Notes under the pieces: model-generated
The model's input: the letters and a program-made list of their open reading frames with translations, nothing else
What the model was told of the DNA's origin: nothing
Databases searched by the model: none
In this document: positions 905 to 43,039 of the stretch, piece after piece
Numbering within the stretch: the stretch's first letter is position 1
Layout of the letters: each line of letters begins with the position of its first letter
Virus genome (UHGV): UHGV-0124386
From: a virus
Direction: 5' to 3' (one strand)
DNA length: 51,920 bases
Program-made: the position numbers and the translations under genes

Positions 905-1081
905 TTACGCCACAGTTACATTGTCAACTTTGATAAAATATTCAGGGTGATTTTCTATTTCGTGCTTAAAGTGCGCGTGACACAATCGCCAATCACGCAC
1001 CTGGTTGTGAAAGTAATAAACGTATTCGCCATCAATCTTATACAAAATGCCTGTAGGTTTAGCCATGTAATAACGAGCCAT
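905..1081 (-). CDS. small hypothetical protein (58 aa), translationally coupled to ninB
   Basis: Hand-translated MARYYMAKPTGILYKIDGEYVYYFHNQVRDWRLCHAHFKHEIENHPEYFIKVDNVTVA; its ATG overlaps the ninB stop (TAATG); below ORF-track size cutoff. Confidence 0.3.
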   Translation of the reverse strand: MARYYMAKPTGILYKIDGEYVYYFHNQVRDWRLCHAHFKHEIENHPEYFIKVDNVTVA

Positions 1082-3967: not shown

Positions 3968-5086
3968 TTACAAAATGGAATATTCAGGGTAATAAACAAA
4001 GCGCCCGATCTCCCCATGATCCGGGCTGTAAATAATCACCGCTGCCAGACGCCGCGACCGCCAGCCGCCATTAATTGAATAAGCGTCTTTACCCGCTAAT
4101 GTGCCGTGATACTCAACAACGCCTAGCGATGATTCAATCAGCCGTTGATGGTGCCAGTGCCCGCAATGAGCGTAAACCGCCGCAGACTTGCCGAAATCCT
4201 CACGCCAGTCAGCTACGCAAGCAGACAATAAATTTTCCGGCTTTTTGATAGTGTGCCCGTGGTGGTAAGCAAGGAATGTTTTGCCGTACTGTGTGTGGTG
4301 GACGATAGCAGGGGACACATCAACAGTTACGCGCGGTTCATCTTCGTAAAAAGCCGCCAGCGCAGCACGTAGCCAAATCATACCAGACTGGTCGTGATTG
4401 CCTGATAGTACCTGGATTTCAATATCCCTATGATTTAACAACATCTTCCCGACAGCCCGCCGGACCGACCTGATCGCTACATAGACAAGTTTTGCATAGC
4501 GCGAATCGCAATCAAGAACGTGATTGCTTGATGGCGTAACTGGCAACAGCCCGTCAGTGTGAAGAACATCCCCACCGAGAAGCAAAACAGCTTTCTCAGA
4601 CATCGGCGCAGCGCCTACAGCGTAGTCAAAGAATTCATTCAATACGCGCTCAGCGATCCCAGTGTCGTAACTCTCGCCGCATTCAGCTTTATGAGCAAGC
4701 GCCCCGATATGCAGATCAAATACCGGATAAAGGGCCAGGCTTTTTTGAAAATCAATTTCCGGCACTGGCACGGCCTCCGCGCGTGGGATTTCTTCAGTGA
4801 AAGCGTCGCGGGCCGCTTCCATTAGCCTTTCCATTTCATCGCGATCACGGGCTGTTTTAATCCAGCGCATGACTGTATTCCCATCCTTATCGACAAGAAC
4901 CGACTCACCAGTAACGCCAAAACCAGGGGCGCGGCGCGTTGATAATAAACCGCGTTTCGCCAGCTTTGCGCCCAGCCGCTCGACGTTGCGTTTTGACATG
5001 CCATATTTTTCAGCGATCTGCTTGTACGTTAAACCGTTGTTATATTCAGCGATCAATTGCTCATCGCTGATTTTTCTTTGCGACAT
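3968..5086 (-). CDS. N-terminal HTH domain fused to calcineurin-like metallophosphoesterase (372 aa)
   Basis: N-terminal HTH-like segment (LTYKQIAEKYGMSKRNVERLGAKLAKRGLL); phosphoesterase motifs DLHIG, GGDVLH, GNHD, HHGH, GHWHH; SD GAGGA upstream of ATG at 5086. Confidence 0.6.
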   Translation of the reverse strand: MSQRKISDEQLIAEYNNGLTYKQIAEKYGMSKRNVERLGAKLAKRGLLSTRRAPGFGVTGESVLVDKDGNTVMRWIKTARDRDEMERLMEAARDAFTEEIPRAEAVPVPEIDFQKSLALYPVFDLHIGALAHKAECGESYDTGIAERVLNEFFDYAVGAAPMSEKAVLLLGGDVLHTDGLLPVTPSSNHVLDCDSRYAKLVYVAIRSVRRAVGKMLLNHRDIEIQVLSGNHDQSGMIWLRAALAAFYEDEPRVTVDVSPAIVHHTQYGKTFLAYHHGHTIKKPENLLSACVADWREDFGKSAAVYAHCGHWHHQRLIESSLGVVEYHGTLAGKDAYSINGGWRSRRLAAVIIYSPDHGEIGRFVYYPEYSIL

Positions 5087-5119
5087 AATGTTATTTCCTC
5101 ATGTTTACATTTTGTATAT

Positions 5120-6043
5120 TTATTGACAGCAAACAATCTCTTTATATGTTTCTTCTACCATGTCGAATACTTCCGGCCTGTAATAAAAAAATTCAGTGCT
5201 ACCATCAAACTTAACAGGGAAGTTTATTTTATAGTCACTGAAAGCATCGTGCATTTTGCTTTCTATTTCCTGCATAATCTCAGTAGGCCCATTCCATGTT
5301 TTAACTACCTGTAAATCAGTCAGCCTTACACCTGCCTTACGAGCACTTTTAAATACTCTGTTCCTCCTTTCGTTCTCTTTTACGCTTACACCAATTTTCA
5401 TTTGTGTAGGCACTTCAAGATCATCAACCATGATGTAAAGTTTTCCGTTGTAGTGTGATAAAAACCCGTATTTAGCGCATTTCGGGCAACCGCGCCCGCT
5501 CTTAATGTCTCTAGGTTTAGCCGACCACTCATGATCACAAACCTTGCAGCGGCATAATACTTTTGTACTGTTATTAACTATTTCAACCAGCACTTCAATA
5601 TCAGGATTAACCTTAGCAATAGCCGATATTTGTTCTTCATGCGATATTTTTTTGCCTTGCGCTCGTTTTAGCACCGCACATTTCTGGCAACCGCTCCCGA
5701 TCTTAAGGCTTTTAGGTGTAGAATACCACTCATGATCACAAACCTTGCAGCGGCATAATACTTTTATTTTGTCGCCGGTAATTTCCCCAAGCACTTCAAT
5801 ATCAGGATTAACCTTAGCAATAGCCGATATTTGTTCTTCATGCGATAACTTCATATTCCCAGCGCATTTCTGGCAACCACGTCCATATTTAATATTGCTA
5901 GGTGTAGCCGACCATTCATGGTTACAAACTTTGCAGCGACATAATACTTTTGTACTGTTATTAACAATTTCCCCTAACACTTCAACATCAGGATTAACTT
6001 TCGCGATAGCTGCAACTTGTTCTTCATGTGTTAACTTGCGCAT
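5120..6043 (-). CDS. protein with three tandem zinc-ribbon repeats and a C-terminal T5orf172 (GIY-YIG-like) domain (307 aa)
   Basis: Three ~60-aa repeats HEEQ.AAIAKVNPD.EVLGEI..KVLCRCKVC.HEW..P..K.G.GC.KC; C-terminal KIGVS...GSTEFF signature resembling T5orf172; strong SD AAGGAG. Confidence 0.6.
   Translation of the reverse strand: MRKLTHEEQVAAIAKVNPDVEVLGEIVNNSTKVLCRCKVCNHEWSATPSNIKYGRGCQKCAGNMKLSHEEQISAIAKVNPDIEVLGEITGDKIKVLCRCKVCDHEWYSTPKSLKIGSGCQKCAVLKRAQGKKISHEEQISAIAKVNPDIEVLVEIVNNSTKVLCRCKVCDHEWSAKPRDIKSGRGCPKCAKYGFLSHYNGKLYIMVDDLEVPTQMKIGVSVKENERRNRVFKSARKAGVRLTDLQVVKTWNGPTEIMQEIESKMHDAFSDYKINFPVKFDGSTEFFYYRPEVFDMVEETYKEIVCCQ
5476..6028. repeat. triplicated ~190-200 bp tandem repeat inside the zinc-ribbon/T5orf172 gene
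   Basis: Antisense ORFs 5544.. and 5745.. both begin MQRHNTF and a third copy follows; protein shows three near-identical modules; coordinates approximate. Confidence 0.7.
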
Positions 6044-8715: not shown

Positions 8716-8807
8716 CCTGAAGAACACCAAAACGTAAACAGAAAACGTTACTTATTGTTTAAATATCAATAGCATATAAAATATTTTAAAAAAGTATACA
8801 AAATGGA

Positions 8808-16264: not shown

Positions 16265-16423
16265 AGTTTACAAAGTGGCATCATTGTGTGATGCGGATCA
16301 CATAATGGCGCTTTTTGTCTTGTTTGGGGGTATCCATTTTGTATACTTCAAGCAAACAAAATGCTCTTTAAAAATCCGGCAGCGCTGAAATGCGTAGAAA
16401 TCACCTGAAAAGGAGAGAGCATT

Positions 16424-35923: not shown

Positions 35924-36400
35924 ATGTCCGAAACCTGTAAATCCGGTGCGTTTACCGGGCGTGATGTTGCCGTGTTCTATGCCATTGCTTGTCCCAGCGC
36001 GAAACCGGAAGAGGGTGGCTACAAGCCGTTAGGTATGATGCGCGGCAAAACGCTTTCCGTAGAATGGGAATCCGCAGACGCTACCGCTGATAAATCCGCC
36101 GACTATACCAAAGAGTCGCTGGTTACTTATAAATCAGTGAGCTTCTCTGGTGATGGTGTTTCACGTAGCGATGATACATACAACCAGAAAGCACTAAAAC
36201 GGCATGTAATGTCTCCGGGCACTGCTACCGGAAATCAACCATATGTGTGGCTGAAAATTGTCAGTGCCACCGATGTAACCGAGGGGCCATTCCTTTGCAC
36301 CTCCTTCAAAGAAGAGGCTCCGTATGATGATGTGACGACCTGGTCTATCGAGTGCGAAAGCGCTGGCCAGGTAACTGTAACCGATCCGGTTGCTGCGTAA
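35924..36400 (+). CDS. major tail tube protein (158 aa)
   Basis: Position before chaperone and tape measure; followed by terminator (attenuator typical after tube gene). Confidence 0.55.
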   Translation: MSETCKSGAFTGRDVAVFYAIACPSAKPEEGGYKPLGMMRGKTLSVEWESADATADKSADYTKESLVTYKSVSFSGDGVSRSDDTYNQKALKRHVMSPGTATGNQPYVWLKIVSATDVTEGPFLCTSFKEEAPYDDVTTWSIECESAGQVTVTDPVAA

Positions 36401-36407
36401 ACAATAA

Positions 36408-36433
36408 GGGGGCTATTTAGCCCCCTTTCTTTT
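36408..36433 (+). terminator. rho-independent terminator after tail tube gene
   Basis: GGGGGCT-ATTT-AGCCCCC followed by TTTCTTTT. Confidence 0.7.
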
Positions 36434-36445
36434 AGGGTGAAGACT

Positions 36446-37123
36446 ATGATTCATGTTCGTACCGGACAATTTGTGGCTATGGTGAACGGTAAGCGCTATG
36501 AATTTAACCCGTGTTTCGCTGCGATGGCTAAAATCGGTAATGACAGGGAGCTTGTGGAATATTTCGCAACCATCCACGGTAGCAAATACCCTTCACGATT
36601 ACCTACAGATCCAGACCTCCGCAATCGCATTATGGCGCGGTGTTATGGTGGGATAGTGCAAACGTCAATGCACATCCTGAAATGTTGCTCAGACGACGAA
36701 ACAGGCCCGTTATTGGGCGAATGCTGGTTTACTCCTTCGGGCAAATTAAGGTTAAAGCCCGGAATAATGCCAGTTGATGATGTTATTACGCTGGCGCAAC
36801 ACTGCATGTACCACGGTTTAATCGGTGACGGGCCGGAAGAAAATACAAGCGAGATCCGGGAAGGTGAATACAAGCCGACATTTGATGTACTTGATTTCGT
36901 TTATTCTGCCGTTGCTCATCTGGGATTATCTGAATCAGAAGCGTGGAACATGACAATGACCGGATACAGGGCCGCAGTGCGCGCTAAAACGCCGCCAGAC
37001 GAAAGAAATGAAAGAAGTAGACCAAATGTTCACATAAATAAACGTGCTTATGACGAGCAAATGGAGGCTGCTAAAAAGGCGCTAAAAAGAATGGAAAATC
37101 GCAAGCAAGAAAAAGCCCGGTAG
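36446..37123 (+). CDS. tail assembly chaperone-like protein (226 aa from ATG 36446; track starts at GTG 36437)
   Basis: Position between tube and tape measure; SD GGGTGA. Confidence 0.45.
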   Translation: MIHVRTGQFVAMVNGKRYEFNPCFAAMAKIGNDRELVEYFATIHGSKYPSRLPTDPDLRNRIMARCYGGIVQTSMHILKCCSDDETGPLLGECWFTPSGKLRLKPGIMPVDDVITLAQHCMYHGLIGDGPEENTSEIREGEYKPTFDVLDFVYSAVAHLGLSESEAWNMTMTGYRAAVRAKTPPDERNERSRPNVHINKRAYDEQMEAAKKALKRMENRKQEKAR

Positions 37124-37138
37124 ATCCGGGCGTTTGTC

Positions 37139-37552
37139 TTATTTGATTCTAACAATATCAATAAAACCGTTACCTAAATCGACAATTGCGTGATTTTTTG
37201 CACCAGCGCCGCCTTTATTAAAAATTCTTTCAGCGAAAGCAACTTTATTTGCTTTACACTCGTTAGCTATCCTGTTTTTTATTTCGCTGTTGTTTTCAAA
37301 GACTACGCCTACAGCAGCCTCGTTTACAAGGCCATAATTAAACCAACGAGCATAAACTGGTTTACCTTCAAAATTTTTATCAATTGCCTTAAAAAGAATT
37401 GTGGGTGCGGCTGGTTCTTTTTTGATCATGTCGTGATATGCGGCTACATGGTTTGCCACTTCTTCACAGTTAATGTTTATGGCCTCGTTAGCGTTAGCGT
37501 TAAATGCTAGTGCAGCAATCACAGCAAGCACCATTTTTGCTAACCGTTTCAT
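37139..37552 (-). CDS. secreted/periplasmic protein of unknown function, antisense to tail operon (137 aa)
   Basis: Sec-type signal peptide MKRLAKMVLAVIAALAFNANA; SD GGGGG; ORF track extends to TTG 37558. Confidence 0.5.
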   Translation of the reverse strand: MKRLAKMVLAVIAALAFNANANEAININCEEVANHVAAYHDMIKKEPAAPTILFKAIDKNFEGKPVYARWFNYGLVNEAAVGVVFENNSEIKNRIANECKANKVAFAERIFNKGGAGAKNHAIVDLGNGFIDIVRIK

Positions 37553-37620
37553 AATCAACCCCCTGTAATTATTCTGATTTGCTAAATGCTTCCTTTAACT
37601 TAGTTATACACGCATATTGT

Positions 37621-37704
37621 TTATTTTTTAAGTGCTTTTAACATTTCTTCGATAAGGTCCGCATAGCGTTCATATTCGTTGGGACGGTAGTTTACGTTTC
37701 TCAT
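37621..37704 (-). CDS. small charged peptide (27 aa) MRNVNYRPNEYERYADLIEEMLKALKK upstream of the antisense secreted-protein gene
   Basis: Hand-translated; SD GAGGA 9 nt upstream. Confidence 0.2.
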   Translation of the reverse strand: MRNVNYRPNEYERYADLIEEMLKALKK

Positions 37705-37855
37705 TTTCTTATCCTCTTTCACTTCCTCCGGGACATCCGGCCTTCCTGCATCTCTTCTATCTTTCTCTACATCATCTATACAAAACGGTATCGTTAAAAT
37801 AAAGACATTTTGTATAAAATAGATGCATAGATCACATTTTGCATGAGGTTAAATC

Positions 37856-40198
37856 ATGGCTACCAGTGTAGGCACAATTTATTACGAAGTTGACGCAAAA
37901 ACAGGACAACTTCTTGTAGCACAACGACAGGCAGACCAGGCCTTTGACCGTATAGAGCGCGGTGCTAAACAGGCCGATCGCCAGGTAAACACACTGAAAA
38001 CATCAATCAAAGCACTGACCAGGGTTATCCATCTGCTAATTGCTGCCGAGGCCGTTAGACAGTTTATGGAAATGGCAGAGCAGGCCAAAATGCTACGCGT
38101 CAAAATCAAAATGCTTACAGGCGACGCGGAATCTGCCGGGCGGGTTTTTGATGGTCTGAAAGAAATATCCAGGGAGACGGGGCAGAGCCTGAAAGATACT
38201 GGCGAATTATGGCAAGGCCTGGCTATCTCACTAAAAAACACCTCCGCTACGGAAGGGCAATTGCTTAACCTGGTTGGCACTATTCAGAAAATGGGTGCAT
38301 TAGGCGGCGCGTCAGCGGAACAGATGTCTAACTCAATGCGTCAATTCCGTCAGTCTATCGACGGCGGTGTTCTTCGTGCCGAAGAATTTAACAGCCTGCT
38401 TGAAAACACGCCGACCATCGTACAAACAATGGCCCGCCATATGGGATTATCAATGGGCCAGTTCCGCGCCGAAATGCTGGACGGCAAGATCACGGCTGAA
38501 AGGATGGTTAACGCAATACAGGCGGCTACGCAGGAAACAAACGATAAGTTTGCTCAGTTGCCGCGCACATCCGGCATGGCTATCAATGAGCTTAAAGTAG
38601 AAATTATGGGCCTTGTTGAGCAGTTGGATGATCTTTTTGGCGTGTCAGATGGCGTTGTTTCAGCTATCGACTTGATCACGAAAGGCGTTAAAGGGCTTGG
38701 CGATGGCGCTAAATTCGCTAAAACCTGCTTCGACACACTCAAAACGGCTGGTAGCGAATTTATCGACATGTTTGATGATGTGGCTGTTAAGGCTGGAGAG
38801 GTGGCAGAGAAGATCATCGCAATGGTGACGCCAATCAAGGCGCTAATGGATGGCTATAAATGGGTGAAGGAGGTAGTAGGAGAGCAAACCGACGAATATA
38901 ACAGCAACTACGAGAAGAAATACGGGAAGACCGTTGGCAAGGTCATGCAACTACAGGATGATCTGACCGCAGCAATCCAGGCTACAGAAGAAGCAAGGAA
39001 AAATGAACAGAATGCTGCCAATGACGGAGCGATTACCGGATTCGACAAGCCAGTAGACAAGCCGAAAAAACAGAAAAAAGAGAAGAAATCGGAAGCTGAT
39101 CGGCTTGGTGACAAAGGTATAAGCGTTTCTGATCAGTACAACAAAGACGCCGCCGCCATGCGCAAAGCGTTGGAGAACGGCAAGGCCATTGATGCTGCAT
39201 TTGCCCAGGGTAAAATCACGCTCCTTGAGTACCGCGCCGCGCAAAAAGGGATCGGCAAGGAACTGAAAGAAGAATTAGCGCAGATCCCGGTAGATGAACT
39301 GCGTGATAAATGGTCGCAAATAGTTAGCCCGATGGACCAGCTAAAAGGCGAGGTTGACCCCATCCAGCAGGCACAAAATGAATGGGCCGTCCGTAAGCAA
39401 ATGCTTATCGACCTGGGCGCTACAGAAGCACAACAGAAACAGGAATTGTTAGCCTATGAGCAGCAGATCCGCGATCTGAAATGGGAGCAGTGGCAGGCGC
39501 AAAGCGACACTAACGGCCTTATCGGTGATTGCGTTAATGGCCTTAAAGGTGGCATGAGCAATGCGCTTGTTGGCCTGCTTAACGGCACTCAATCATTGAG
39601 CGATGTTTTTGCTAACTTAGGGAGCAATATACTAGGGAACATCGGCAACAGGCTTTCTGACATAGCCGCCAACTGGATAGCAGATCAAATCATGATGGAG
39701 ACACAAAGCAAGGCAACGCAGGCCAGCACAACGGCAAGTGCGGTAGCCGCTCAGGGTAGCATCGCTGCGGCAGCGGCCCCGGCAGCGGCGGCAACAGCAG
39801 CATCAACTGGCGGTAGCTGGGCGGCGGCTGGCTCTGCGGCACTCACTGCGATCATGTCTCTGGCAACATCCATCTTCGGTGGCAGGCGCTTTAATGGTGG
39901 TAGCGTCATTGGTGGCAACTTGTACCGTGTCGGGGAAAACAACAGGACGGAGCTATTCCAGACGCCTAACGGGAATCAATATATGATTCCTGGCGAGAAC
40001 GGCAGAGTTATTCCGGGCCGTGATATTGGCGGCGGTGGCGGTATTAGTATGCCTGTCAGTATCAGCATTCAGACAACGAACGGATTCAGCGACGAAGACA
40101 GCCGCAGACTTGAACAGACAATGGAACGTGTAGCTATGAAGATGATAACAAGGGAATCTCAAAGACCGGGCGGAATGTTGCAACCGCGCCGCAAATAA
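37856..40198 (+). CDS. tail tape measure protein (780 aa)
   Basis: Length, coiled-coil-rich sequence, Gly-rich C-terminal region, position before M-L-K-I-J. Confidence 0.85.
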   Translation: MATSVGTIYYEVDAKTGQLLVAQRQADQAFDRIERGAKQADRQVNTLKTSIKALTRVIHLLIAAEAVRQFMEMAEQAKMLRVKIKMLTGDAESAGRVFDGLKEISRETGQSLKDTGELWQGLAISLKNTSATEGQLLNLVGTIQKMGALGGASAEQMSNSMRQFRQSIDGGVLRAEEFNSLLENTPTIVQTMARHMGLSMGQFRAEMLDGKITAERMVNAIQAATQETNDKFAQLPRTSGMAINELKVEIMGLVEQLDDLFGVSDGVVSAIDLITKGVKGLGDGAKFAKTCFDTLKTAGSEFIDMFDDVAVKAGEVAEKIIAMVTPIKALMDGYKWVKEVVGEQTDEYNSNYEKKYGKTVGKVMQLQDDLTAAIQATEEARKNEQNAANDGAITGFDKPVDKPKKQKKEKKSEADRLGDKGISVSDQYNKDAAAMRKALENGKAIDAAFAQGKITLLEYRAAQKGIGKELKEELAQIPVDELRDKWSQIVSPMDQLKGEVDPIQQAQNEWAVRKQMLIDLGATEAQQKQELLAYEQQIRDLKWEQWQAQSDTNGLIGDCVNGLKGGMSNALVGLLNGTQSLSDVFANLGSNILGNIGNRLSDIAANWIADQIMMETQSKATQASTTASAVAAQGSIAAAAAPAAAATAASTGGSWAAAGSAALTAIMSLATSIFGGRRFNGGSVIGGNLYRVGENNRTELFQTPNGNQYMIPGENGRVIPGRDIGGGGGISMPVSISIQTTNGFSDEDSRRLEQTMERVAMKMITRESQRPGGMLQPRRK

Positions 40199-40202
40199 CA
40201 CT

Positions 40203-40228
40203 AAGGCCACTTATAGTGGCCTTTTTCT
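40203..40228. terminator. terminator hairpin after tape measure gene (also at 3' end of antisense gene)
   Basis: AAGGCCAC-TTATA-GTGGCCTT followed by TTTCTT. Confidence 0.65.
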
Positions 40229-40410
40229 TAGTCTACCTCTTCGTTTTTAAACTCACCATCAACAAACTTTTGTAGTCCAGCAATAAGCTGTACAGCCTGC
40301 GACTTGTCAATCACGATGGTGTCAGTCCCCATAAGTTCGGTTATCCACAATACATCATTTTCAAGATCTAACCGGACACCATAACAACGTTTTGTTTCTT
40401 CAATAATCAC
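40228..40410 (-). CDS. hypothetical protein (60 aa), antisense island
   Basis: ORF track. Confidence 0.35.
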   Translation of the reverse strand: MIIEETKRCYGVRLDLENDVLWITELMGTDTIVIDKSQAVQLIAGLQKFVDGEFKNEEVD

Positions 40411-40520
40411 TTTTTTCTCCTACAGTCTGCCGTTACGTGCGATGTAACTCCTACTGGACATCACTAACCAGATGTTCCAGATCTCACGCCAGGTGAATTT
40501 ATCGTCCTTCATATCCCGAC

Positions 40521-40775
40521 TCACTTATGGCAACCGCGCACGCCAGATAATTCATTAAATTTATGATGTTCAACAATCACCCACTCCTTCAGATCCTGGC
40601 TATAGACTCGCCAGTCTAAATTGGCGCGGAAGGCGTAGCCGTAACCGTCTTTTAATTTTTTGGGCGACACATCCTTGTTTAAAAACGCGTTCAAAAGCTC
40701 CCTTGCTTTTTTAACTACACGTTCCGGCGCGTTTTTCTGTGCTTTCAGGTTTTTGTCAATCGCTACCAGTTTCAT
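40521..40775 (-). CDS. candidate RelE/YoeB-superfamily toxin-like protein (84 aa)
   Basis: Pattern ERVVKKARELLNAF...KKLKDGYGYAFRANLDWRVYSQDLKEWVIVEHHKF resembles RelE/YoeB toxins (KRIVKKINELIKD...HRLVY...); preceded by small ORF. Confidence 0.4.
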   Translation of the reverse strand: MKLVAIDKNLKAQKNAPERVVKKARELLNAFLNKDVSPKKLKDGYGYAFRANLDWRVYSQDLKEWVIVEHHKFNELSGVRGCHK

Positions 40776-40792
40776 AACTCACCCCATCATCC

Positions 40793-40948
40793 TTAGTTAA
40801 GTGCCTTCAGGAAGAAGTCCCGGTATTCATCTTCTTTCGCATTCATCATGAATTGACCGTATTTGAATGCGTCGTCGAAACCCTTAACGATTGCTATTTC
40901 CACTTGTTCGAATGCGTTATTTAGCATTACTACTACATAGCGTTTCAT
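40793..40948 (-). CDS. small protein (51 aa) upstream of toxin-like gene; candidate antitoxin
   Basis: Hand-translated MKRYVVVMLNNAFEQVEIAIVKGFDDAFKYGQFMMNAKEDEYRDFFLKALN; excellent SD AGGAGG 8 nt upstream; 17-bp gap to toxin-like gene. Confidence 0.35.
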   Translation of the reverse strand: MKRYVVVMLNNAFEQVEIAIVKGFDDAFKYGQFMMNAKEDEYRDFFLKALN

Positions 40949-41115
40949 TTTGGGCCTCCTTCGTTGGTACTGCTTTCTTCTTGCTTTCTATATACATCTT
41001 GTTGCATGCTACGTGAAGCCATTTTGTAAACTAGCTATAATCATTGTGACAAAGATCTCATTTTTCGCGTAGAAGCGCGTAAAGATATATACAAAATGTA
41101 ACTTGTGGGGGTTTT

Positions 41116-41469
41116 ATGCCGGAAGTGTTCAGATGGACGCCGCAAAGAAGCTACAGCGTGACCAGGGAACCAAACGTATCTGTCATTAAACTTGGTGATG
41201 GGTATGAACAACGCCAGGCGAAAGGGATTAACACATTACTTGATAGTTACACCCTGGTTTTTAAAGGCAGTAGTGCAGGATGCGGCGATGGTGGGAATGT
41301 AGCGATCCAGGCGGAAGCATTCTTGAGGGCGCGTGGCGCTGTCGAGGCTTTTTACTGGTCGCCGTCGATGGATAACGTGCAAAGGCTTTTTGTTTGCCGT
41401 AGCTGGAGCATGACTAAAGACGGTCCGCTATACACGCTAAATGCAACATTTGAGCAAGTTATTAATTAG
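41116..41469 (+). CDS. M: minor tail protein M (lambda gpM-like, 117 aa)
   Basis: Aligns with recalled lambda M (FRW, GDGY.QR...G.N, C..WS, EFEQV(I/V)N C-terminus). Confidence 0.8.
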   Translation: MPEVFRWTPQRSYSVTREPNVSVIKLGDGYEQRQAKGINTLLDSYTLVFKGSSAGCGDGGNVAIQAEAFLRARGAVEAFYWSPSMDNVQRLFVCRSWSMTKDGPLYTLNATFEQVIN

Positions 41470-41763: not shown

Positions 41764-42475
41764 TCATAACGCCCCCTTCAAATATGTCAATCCCTTATCA
41801 GTGACGAATGAGTGATTAACCTGGTTTTCATCCGTCATGATGATAAATAACTTTTCCTGTAGGTATTTCGCTTTAGGGTACAGCGTTAAGCAGACCTGGT
41901 ACAGTATCCCGCGCTCAATCAGCAAATCAATAAATTCGTGTTCATGATAACCGATAAGGCGGGCGGCCTGTTTCAACGTGTATACATAATCACTGTGATT
42001 GCGCCGCGCCATGTTCTTTATAGTACCCTCCGATTTCGTGCGCTTCTTTTGAGGCGTTACACGCATCAAGGTAGCTATTAAAACACCCTATATGCCGATA
42101 CACCCCACTAATCATCACTCTTACAATCCATTTTTTATTCGCTTCATTCCACCATACGCCAATGCACCCGCTCTTATTCCTTCTGGATAACGGCATATTT
42201 TTCATGTTTTCTTGTTTTGTTATCATTCTTAGATTTTATATTCTGTTATCACTCCTTATATGGTTTATATGGTCAATCACATACCCTTCTGGGATCGGGC
42301 CGTTGTGCATTTCCCAAATTATGTTGTGTGCCTTATACTTTTTATTTTGCACACAGATAACAATATACCCGTTGTGCAAACTTCCGGCTTCCTTGCCGTT
42401 GGTAATTCTACCGCTTGTTGGTATCTTCCAGAATAATTTCCCTTCATTATAAGTAAAGATGTTGTACCATTTCAT
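41764..42475 (-). pseudogene. disrupted HNH-AP2 homing endonuclease (HNH_3 domain, AP2 domain, C-terminal HTH region split into three ORFs)
   Basis: ORF 42236..42475 carries the HNH_3 core (HNGYIVICVQNKKYKAHNIIWEMHNGPIPEGYVIDHINHIRSDNRI) and stops at an in-frame TAA where the family motif DNRIENLR has Glu; ORF 41990..42226 continues NLR-MITKQENMKN and has the AP2 pattern (SGCIGVWWNEANKKWIVRV...GCFNSYLDACNASKEA); ORF 41764..42069 is frameshifted relative to it. Confidence 0.6.
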
Positions 42476-42480
42476 AATTT

Positions 42481-42885
42481 TTAATCAAAGCAACTTAAAT
42501 TGTCGATACAGAAATCTTTTGCCGCTTTTTCGTATTCGCGTTTTGCATCAGGATCATCAGCCGGGAAACCCTTTGCGTGTATTTCACCAGGGCAAGACTG
42601 ATCCATAGAGTCAGCAAAATTAACATTGACGTTAAAGTTAATATCTTTCGGGTTCATATCTTCCACCTTCTCATCTATTTGTACCTGAGTTATTTTGAAT
42701 TCCCTGGCGCGCCCGAAGAAGCGAACAAGTTTTTCTCCTTCCTCGACTGCCATTTCGTAACTGTCATATAATCCGTAACCTTCCCAATCTTTACTGCCTG
42801 CCATCCATACATCTAGACGGTATTTTTGCATTTTACTGATCCCCGCTTTTAATCGGTTTAATCCGGTAGCCCAGGACGCGATCAT
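42481..42885 (-). CDS. hypothetical protein (up to 134 aa; likely start at MQKYRL)
   Basis: ORF track. Confidence 0.35.
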   Translation of the reverse strand: MIASWATGLNRLKAGISKMQKYRLDVWMAGSKDWEGYGLYDSYEMAVEEGEKLVRFFGRAREFKITQVQIDEKVEDMNPKDINFNVNVNFADSMDQSCPGEIHAKGFPADDPDAKREYEKAAKDFCIDNLSCFD

Positions 42886-43039
42886 CTTTTTCTGATAGGT
42901 AAATGGACGTTTCTAAGGCGTCGCTAGGGTTATCGAATTCAGCCTCGATATCACGCCCGTTACTCACAAATAAGGTCAGTCTCCATAGTTTATCGTTCAT
43001 CCCGCGCCCTTTGTGCCATTTTGTTAACTTCCCCTTCAT
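42833..43039 (-). CDS. hypothetical protein (68 aa)
   Basis: ORF track. Confidence 0.3.
   Translation of the reverse strand: MKGKLTKWHKGRGMNDKLWRLTLFVSNGRDIEAEFDNPSDALETSIYLSEKDDRVLGYRIKPIKSGDQ

Follow-up and report, generated by a model that had tools for sequence, protein, structure and literature searches.

An antisense cargo cassette at the DUF6246/tape-measure junction of an mEpimmI-group temperate coliphage

Results

A minus-strand island with genes for a predicted exported protein and a mini-protein

The viral genome UHGV-0124386 (51,920 nt; this whole stretch is the window, and all positions are window coordinates) carries a minus-strand island between two plus-strand tail genes, one of the DUF6246 family and one encoding the tape-measure protein (TMP). 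The island, which we call the cargo slot, contains two genes: a short one for a mini-protein and, after it, one for a larger protein with a signal peptide, which we call family A (Table 1). The GC content is 0.36-0.40 within the slot (37200-37800) compared with 0.46-0.51 in the flanks, and the GC/AT skew is inverted. By its sequence, the window is a temperate coliphage of the mEpimmI (mEp021) group, and the region is 78-86% identical in DNA to the Escherichia phages MagusPhagus, mEp021, mEp554, mEp044, mEp013, mEp515 and mEp010. The mEpimmI phages were described in 2025 as Nus-dependent, non-lambdoid temperate siphoviruses (PMC11893012, main text).

The family A gene encodes the antisense 137-aa Sec-type precursor that the initial annotation had recognized by its signal peptide and two mature cysteines; the open reading frame (ORF) can be extended to a TTG at 37558, giving 139 aa. 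The precursor begins with MKRLAKMVLAVIAALAFNANA and continues with NE after the predicted cleavage site. Three regions can be told apart: an n-region, MKRLAK, with three basic residues, a hydrophobic core of 11 residues, MVLAVIAALAF, and a c-region, NANA, which places A-N-A at -3 to -1. There is no lipobox. Judged by the n/h/c rule alone, these are the features of a Sec signal peptide cleaved by signal peptidase I (SPase I), and the pattern is retained in all homologues despite varying residues. Cys29 and Cys99 are invariant (12/12 homologues). In one otherwise identical family A allele (L008, IMGVR_UViG_3300029816_000005), a 6-nt duplication in the signal-peptide c-region, a slippage on the AACGCT repeat, changes NANA to NANANA and lengthens the precursor to 139 aa.

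Polymorphism among related loci indicates that both genes are real and under purifying selection, because the ratio of nonsynonymous to synonymous polymorphism (pN/pS) is 0.20 for family A (16 unique alleles; variable positions, 94 third versus 29 second) and 0.13 for the mini-protein ORF (24 unique alleles; 21/29 third versus 5 second). The mini-protein, listed in the initial annotation as a possible 27-aa charged peptide, is 27-29 aa long among relatives and occurs in 36 of the 53 close relatives defined below, upstream of five unrelated kinds of cargo. Searches with tblastn matched it only in mEp-group phages. Several GenBank records annotate plus-strand ORFs over the mini-protein ORF; their ratio exceeds 2, so they are not coding. 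Misannotated plus-strand ORFs antisense to slot genes are found in mEp554 (L003, 2793-3068 and 3159-3344), mEp010 (L007, 3561-3662), MagusPhagus (L002, 3280-3384) and mEp021 (L001, 3208-3294). The mEp554 annotation misses a membrane-protein cargo altogether, and the mEp021 record is without the conserved mini-protein gene.

Of 5.8 billion clusters, 17 hold homologues of family A, and these come without exception from E. coli or uncultured Caudoviricetes; the gene was always in the slot, between TMP_3 and DUF6246 genes. Among 5,426 complete E. coli genomes, 21 matched the query segment at least partly and 5 carried the allele type in full. An AlphaFold2 (AF2) model of the protein (predicted local distance difference test score, pLDDT, 80; predicted template modelling score, pTM, 0.78) shows a bundle of five to six helices and a C-terminal beta-hairpin; residues 1-20 form an N-terminal helix of low pLDDT, matching the signal peptide. 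Pfam, PHROGs, NCBIfam and PADLOC gave no match. The family A profile hidden Markov model (HMM) found nothing below E 0.5 among PDB sequences and, among 1.84 billion representatives, its own family and otherwise only local similarities to eukaryotic repeat proteins. Foldseek searches with the AF2 model reached best E values of 0.86 in the PDB and 0.17 among the viral structures of BFVD. Across these sources (PDB, BFVD and the profile libraries), the family A protein has no sequence or fold relatives beyond these prophages. An EF-hand motif, to which weak HMM matches (P0019-P0021), local ones to repeat proteins, pointed, was rejected: the 12 residues of an EF-hand loop should include acidic or polar ligands at positions 1, 3, 5 and 12, the last being Glu or Asp, and the loop DKNFEGKPVYAR has Arg, Thr or Lys at position 12 and is variable at position 3.

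The slot in related phages

We gathered 76 viral loci with the DUF6246 protein and located the tape-measure start in each. Fifty-three of them are close relatives, with DUF6246 proteins at least 68% identical to that of the window; in distant relatives the identity is 26-40%. All 53 close relatives have an occupied slot, a low-GC minus-strand cassette of 640-1275 bp in one of 13 architectures. The commonest, the mini-protein followed by family A, accounts for 17 loci, the window among them. Almost all of the cargo is envelope-directed: besides family A, families B (116-119 aa) and C (165 aa) are Sec-exported, families D, E and F are lipoproteins (124, 203-219 and 245 aa), and family G is a two-helix membrane protein of 100-107 aa that comes with a 35-aa membrane peptide (tm35), while tm59 is a membrane peptide of 59 aa. 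Other cargo includes two small soluble proteins. Family E matches the VasI family, which is associated with the type VI secretion system (T6SS; Pfam E 1e-15, TIGR03360 E 2e-12). The remaining families gave no informative match in the profile searches, PHROGs returning unknown-function families only. Genes are combined as mosaics, such as mini-protein, A; mini-protein, A, tm35, D; and mini-protein, B, tm35, G. In six loci (L084-L089), family A is followed by a membrane peptide of 33-35 aa.

Most distant relatives look different. In thirteen loci (L056, L061, L062, L064, L068, L070, L071, L073-L077 and L091), the gap between the DUF6246 and TMP genes is -4 to +99 bp. A Castellaniella prophage is among the distant relatives without the slot, and a scan of one genome per species gave two distant Castellaniella loci only. 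At the same junction, four further distant loci (L055, L059, L060 and L065) have acquired a plus-strand insertion independently; in three it encodes a lipoprotein. The insertions of L059, L060 and L065 (approximately 4131-5615) consist of a gene for a 118-aa lipoprotein, joined by two more genes in L060, and have a strong terminator just before the tape-measure start. Because the two genes abut or overlap in most distant relatives and a few others have independent insertions, the contiguous arrangement is ancestral and the junction a recurrent insertion point. The comparison of loci thus shows the slot as a derived cargo hot spot that is always filled in the E. coli clade and whose content is exchanged between phages.

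Conserved edges and exchanged mature domains

Comparison with related phages, which the initial annotation had proposed as a way to define the insertion boundaries, placed them at two well-conserved edges. At the 3' edge, a terminator hairpin lies directly after the cargo stop codon; it marks the left boundary in 53/53 close relatives and is annotated in mEp021 and other mEp records. The 5' edge has a fixed order: an invariant inverted repeat, the mini-protein gene, a ribosome-binding site (RBS) and shared codons for the signal peptide, into which a conserved junction, …AAAAACAAAAACTAAGCGGGGTGAGTT ATG AAA CGG TTA…, leads. Family A (L001) and family B (L033) share 94% identity over the 66 nt of signal-peptide DNA, and the mature parts of the two families could not be aligned (BLASTP E > 0.5; hhalign, columns 1-43 only). 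Neither BLASTP nor hhalign related families A, B and C to one another beyond the signal peptide. The aligned loci show unrelated mature domains joined at the predicted signal-peptidase cleavage site. An integron-like or other site-specific capture at the repeat was rejected: the points at which similarity is lost are the signal-peptide/mature junction and the terminator, and the repeat is not one of them. Of the genes examined near the slot, none was noted as encoding a recombinase.

The inverted repeat has fully complementary arms, bearing out the inverted motif pair of the initial annotation, and apart from it no non-coding DNA upstream of the minus-strand cassette and of the tape-measure gene is conserved. 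In 36 unique upstream sequences, neither the arms nor the bases adjoining them (CATTTTGTATAnAATAG) vary, a conservation far above that of the neighbouring coding sequence. The arms lie at a fixed -79/-48 from the TMP ATG regardless of cargo or TMP type, and this position is kept even where the tape-measure protein is only 31-46% identical. The 9-mer of the right arm, TTTTGTATA, has seven copies in the window against 0.85 expected, a count reached in 0 of 100 shuffles. RNAalifold gave the repeat a weak hairpin of -5 kcal/mol and no covariation, and an Rfam search returned only a sub-threshold match, on the terminator. Because the arms are invariant (not covarying), the hairpin is weak and the 9-mer is over-represented, an RNA element was rejected here and we take the repeat to be a sequence-specific DNA site.

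CA usually precedes the 9-mer, and the seven sites all appear to be intergenic. They include one just 3' of a cI-like repressor gene, one upstream of ninG, and one that lies 20 nt upstream of a minor tail gene and points into another minus-strand island. The 9-mer may be the site of a regulator. A third, degenerate copy of the motif, at approximately -19 from the TMP ATG, overlaps the ribosome-binding region of the tape-measure gene; it reads TTTTGTATG in relatives (for example L002, L006, L020, L025 and L047) and TTTTGCATG in the window. Some 29 nt separate it from the right arm, so that the three copies are spaced about three helical turns apart.

The repeat could be a regulated promoter or operator, putatively a divergent one. 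In architectures without the mini-protein ORF, the cargo ATG is approximately 45 nt from the left arm, and the TMP ATG is 48 nt from the right arm. Because both starts are so close to the arms, a minus-strand promoter would have to be located within the repeat, next to it or inside the tape-measure gene. Relatives offer TTCACT/TTTACT-N17-TATAAA/G as the best minus-strand candidates, and the window offers TTTATT-N17-TATAGA. The right arm contains TAAAAT, which would be a reasonable plus-strand -10 for the tape-measure gene, but its best -35 is 15 nt away.

Flanking genes and other islands

The DUF6246 and TMP genes come after the major-tail and tail-terminator genes, with the DUF6246 gene between the major tail gene and the TMP gene. 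This is the position of a tail assembly chaperone gene, and from that position we infer a chaperone role; the mass spectrometry (MS)-informed annotation of mEp021 gives the DUF6246 product no virion structural protein label. The initial annotation had described chaperone and tape-measure genes as often linked by a programmed frameshift. This is mistaken: the known frameshift joins the two chaperone ORFs (HK97 annotation), not chaperone to tape measure. The DUF6246 gene contains no in-frame slippery heptamer of the form X XXY YYZ and no alternative-frame open stretch past the gene end, and a G/GT-type programmed -1 frameshift was rejected on these grounds. In some related loci the DUF6246 stop overlaps the TMP start.

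Other features of the window were seen alongside. A strong bidirectional terminator hairpin separates the major tail gene from the DUF6246 gene, and the tail genes 3' of it would need read-through, antitermination or the putative repeat promoter. Between the tape-measure gene and a minor tail gene lies a second minus-strand island of low GC content, which encodes an 84-aa ParE-like toxin preceded by a 51-aa ORF and looks like a toxin-antitoxin moron. A third, inside the tail module, looks like a decayed homing-endonuclease/antirepressor insertion; it holds fragments of an HNH_3 endonuclease gene and of a KilAC-domain gene and other small ORFs. In the early region, a minus-strand gene encodes a 307-aa protein with CapR-homology and DUF4379 treble-clef zinc-finger domains, which may be a prophage-borne defence or regulatory gene.

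Table 1 Positions of the slot, its parts and other features in the window
Feature	Position	Strand	Description
DUF6246 gene	36437..37123	+	228 aa; PF19759 E 3.6e-54, phrog_791; left flank and proposed homology arm
Bidirectional intrinsic terminator hairpin	37115..37131		GCCCGGTAGATCCGGGC; T-run on both strands; overlaps DUF6246 stop
Cargo slot	37124..37855	-	732 bp; low-GC minus-strand island between DUF6246 and TMP genes
Family A cargo gene	37139..37552	-	137-aa precursor from ATG; stop 37139-37141
Mature protein	37142-37489	-	116 aa; periplasmic by prediction
Signal peptide	37490-37552	-	Codons 1-21
Shine-Dalgarno sequence, family A gene	37559..37563	-	GGGGG, 6 nt upstream; annotated RBS in mEp021
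Mini-protein gene	37621..37704	-	27 aa, MRNVNYRPNEYERYADLIEEMLKALKK; GAGGA RBS; first gene of the minus-strand unit
Inverted repeat	37777..37816		TATACAAAA (37777-37785)-N22-TTTTGTATA (37808-37816); 9/9 complementary
Third, degenerate motif copy	37836-37844		TTTTGCATG
Tape-measure gene	37856..40198	+	780 aa; PF20155 TMP_3 E 4.6e-50, phrog_1538 E 2e-156; right flank
9-mer copies	1039-1047(-), 5110-5118(+), 8795-8803(-), 16337-16345(+), 37777-37785(-), 37808-37816(+), 41088-41096(-)		TTTTGTATA
Upstream terminator hairpin	36406-36427		Between major tail gene and DUF6246 gene
Second low-GC island	40228-41022	-	Between tape-measure gene and minor tail gene
ParE-like toxin gene	40521-40775		84 aa; PF24732 E 3e-8
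Minor tail gene	41116-41469		
Third minus-strand island	41764-43039	-	Inside tail module
KilAC-domain fragment	41764-42069		
HNH_3 endonuclease fragment	42236-42475		
CapR-homology/DUF4379 gene	5120-6043	-	307 aa; early region

Discussion

The segment has these marks of a moron in the Hendrix/Juhala sense: extra DNA between otherwise adjacent genes, a deviant base composition and a terminator of its own. Here the view of the initial annotation, an accessory insertion between a gene in the chaperone position and the tape-measure gene, stands, and we hold the architectural description of the cassette with high confidence. The fuller reading, a two-gene minus-strand accessory cassette in a family-wide hot spot with an exported, protective product, we consider probable, with moderate confidence.

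In the explanation we propose, transcription would start in or next to the inverted repeat, run leftwards through the mini-protein ORF and the cargo gene, and stop at the terminator (37131-37115). The 137-aa precursor would be exported by Sec and cleaved after A-N-A, and the 116-residue product would fold in the periplasm as a helical bundle with a Cys29-Cys99 disulphide. The conserved edges would act as homology arms, so that whole cassettes, or mature domains alone, could be swapped by homologous recombination between related phages and prophages. What the protein does is a more tentative matter: by analogy, the prophage-made protein may shield the lysogen at the envelope, most likely by blocking genome entry after adsorption, a role we put at somewhat below an even chance. 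We favour exclusion over other roles because the cargo is envelope-directed, because gp15 of phage HK97 is encoded at the same junction, and because lipoproteins of mEpimmI phages exclude other phages.

The closest parallel is HK97 gene 15, the first element to be called a moron, which lies between the tail assembly chaperone and tape-measure genes (PMC3594210; NC_002167 annotation). Its product is a YebO-like superinfection exclusion protein that is expressed from the prophage and acts on genome entry (Juhala et al. 2000; Cumby et al. 2012, summarised in PMC3594210). An insertion at this junction is therefore not the unusual event that the initial annotation took it to be: the first moron was found there, and the slot is filled in every close relative. 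The two elements share the junction, a low GC content (0.37 versus 0.50 in HK97; 0.36-0.40 versus 0.46-0.51 here), a terminator of their own, an envelope-bound product, dispensability and absence from related phages. They also differ. Gene 15 is on the tail-gene strand whereas the cassette is antisense, and gp15 is a 62-aa inner-membrane protein, in contrast to a soluble periplasmic protein of 116 aa with a cleaved Sec signal (both predicted). The multi-allele hot spot with a conserved leader mini-protein further sets the mEpimmI slot apart from gene 15. In BLASTP searches of gp15 against all slot cargo the best E value was 11, and the family A protein, with its predicted cleavable signal peptide and soluble mature part in place of a single uncleaved N-terminal transmembrane helix, does not belong to the gp15/YebO family. 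If the family A protein worked in a gp15-like way, it would interfere with the genome entry of incoming phages after adsorption.

A second parallel comes from the mEpimmI phages themselves. Their lipoproteins Lpp021 (gp81) and Lpp010 (gp116) exclude superinfecting phages in experiments (Negrete-Mendez et al. 2025, PMC11893012, main text). These proteins resemble the slot cargo in belonging to the same phage group, being targeted to the envelope, being encoded inside the structural gene cluster and existing in several sequence types. They are, however, encoded at another locus (gp81/gp116 versus gp63 in the mEp021 numbering) and are lipoproteins, not Sec/SPase I substrates, and their types follow the receptor (OmpA versus LamB) while family A does not. 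The main text of PMC11893012 does not discuss the slot, and its sole mention of 'tape measure' is unrelated. More loosely, the lambda-type morons bor and lom and the cor gene of phi80/N15/mEp167 are prophage accessory genes for exported or envelope proteins that lie in or near tail genes and have their own expression signals (PMC3594210). They differ in their proteins and positions: bor and cor encode lipoproteins and lom an outer-membrane beta-barrel.

Several observations weigh against the interpretation as a prophage-expressed, protective cassette. Some concern its expression. A sigma-70 consensus scan of 36300-38100 found no promoter, and manual -35/-10 scoring of all seven 9-mer sites gave none with a good -35. 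No good -35 accompanies the -10-like hexamers of the repeat arms, the T at -7 is missing from them on the minus strand, and the TATAGA of the window is poorer than the copies in relatives. Others concern the cargo. An export signal is missing from family H (106 aa), the main clade shows no correspondence between cargo type and tape-measure type, and near-identical family A proteins are present in mEp021 and mEp010, which use OmpA and LamB, respectively, as receptors. Since these two phages share the protein, masking of the phage's own receptor is unlikely, and receptor-linked exclusion was rejected.

The sharing of family A by phages with different receptors also fits another kind of lysogenic conversion, one not directed at phages: a periplasmic immunity protein or inhibitor acting against type VI effectors, colicins or lysozymes, or a colonisation factor. 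The protein is small, helical, disulphide-bonded and periplasmic by prediction, a sister cargo family in the same slot (E) is a lipoprotein of the T6SS-associated VasI family, and the swapping of mature domains with fast turnover is as seen for immunity genes. The profile, PDB and fold searches, however, found nothing similar among the known families and folds of immunity proteins or inhibitors, VasI itself has no established role, and family A is limited to one prophage group and never lies beside a toxin gene. We think this explanation unlikely, though it is the strongest of the rivals to exclusion of phages.

A role in the lytic cycle is less likely still. Late transcription from the repeat would take in both the cassette and the tape-measure gene, and the product of the cassette would condition the envelope against re-adsorption or abortive injection of progeny, or modulate lysis. 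The invariant repeat is indeed common to the upstream region of the tape-measure gene, its 9-mer recurs at other sites in the phage, and the absence of an autonomous sigma-70 consensus suggests an activator-dependent promoter. Yet antisense transcription within a late operon would collide with that of the tail genes, the cargo is dispensable and variable among viable phages, and morons expressed from the prophage classically show a low GC content, a terminator of their own and interchangeable cargo (PMC3594210). That the family A protein serves in tail assembly or in the virion and merely has its gene on the other strand, as the place of that gene inside the tail cluster beside the tape-measure gene might suggest, is highly improbable and close to refuted: the viable phages mEp013, mEp515, mEp044 and mEp554 have unrelated genes in its place, which upholds the accessory nature assumed in the initial annotation, the protein has a Sec signal peptide, mEp021_63 is not labelled as virion structural in the MS-informed record while its neighbours are (PMC11893012, main text), and most of the distant relatives have no such slot at all.

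We return, then, to a prophage-expressed accessory cassette with an exported, protective product. One extension of it is possible though doubtful. The slot could be a "plug-in export locus" and not simply a landing site for morons: the repeat as a switch shared with the tape-measure gene, the mini-protein and the common signal peptide would together form a family-wide adaptor for expression and export, behind which unrelated mature domains are recombined at the cleavage site, and a phage or host regulator at the repeat, with its eight-fold over-represented 9-mer, couples cargo expression inversely to that of the tail genes.

What the slot adds to the catalogue of morons is a fold-orphan family of predicted periplasmic proteins, along with about a dozen further families of cargo and a mini-protein that is conserved. 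The fold-orphan protein, the mini-protein leader and the swapping of mature domains behind a shared signal peptide beside an invariant repeat go beyond the ordinary, and signal-peptide-junction swapping would be a neat example of modular evolution. Current ideas are not overturned, and the value of the finding is mainly that of a well-defined experimental lead. It presents the classical chaperone/tape-measure junction as a multi-allelic cargo site that is used systematically in a gut-prevalent coliphage family. Should the cargo proteins turn out to act in exclusion or immunity, the slot would amount to a compact natural library of proteins that defend at the envelope, with ready comparison sets.

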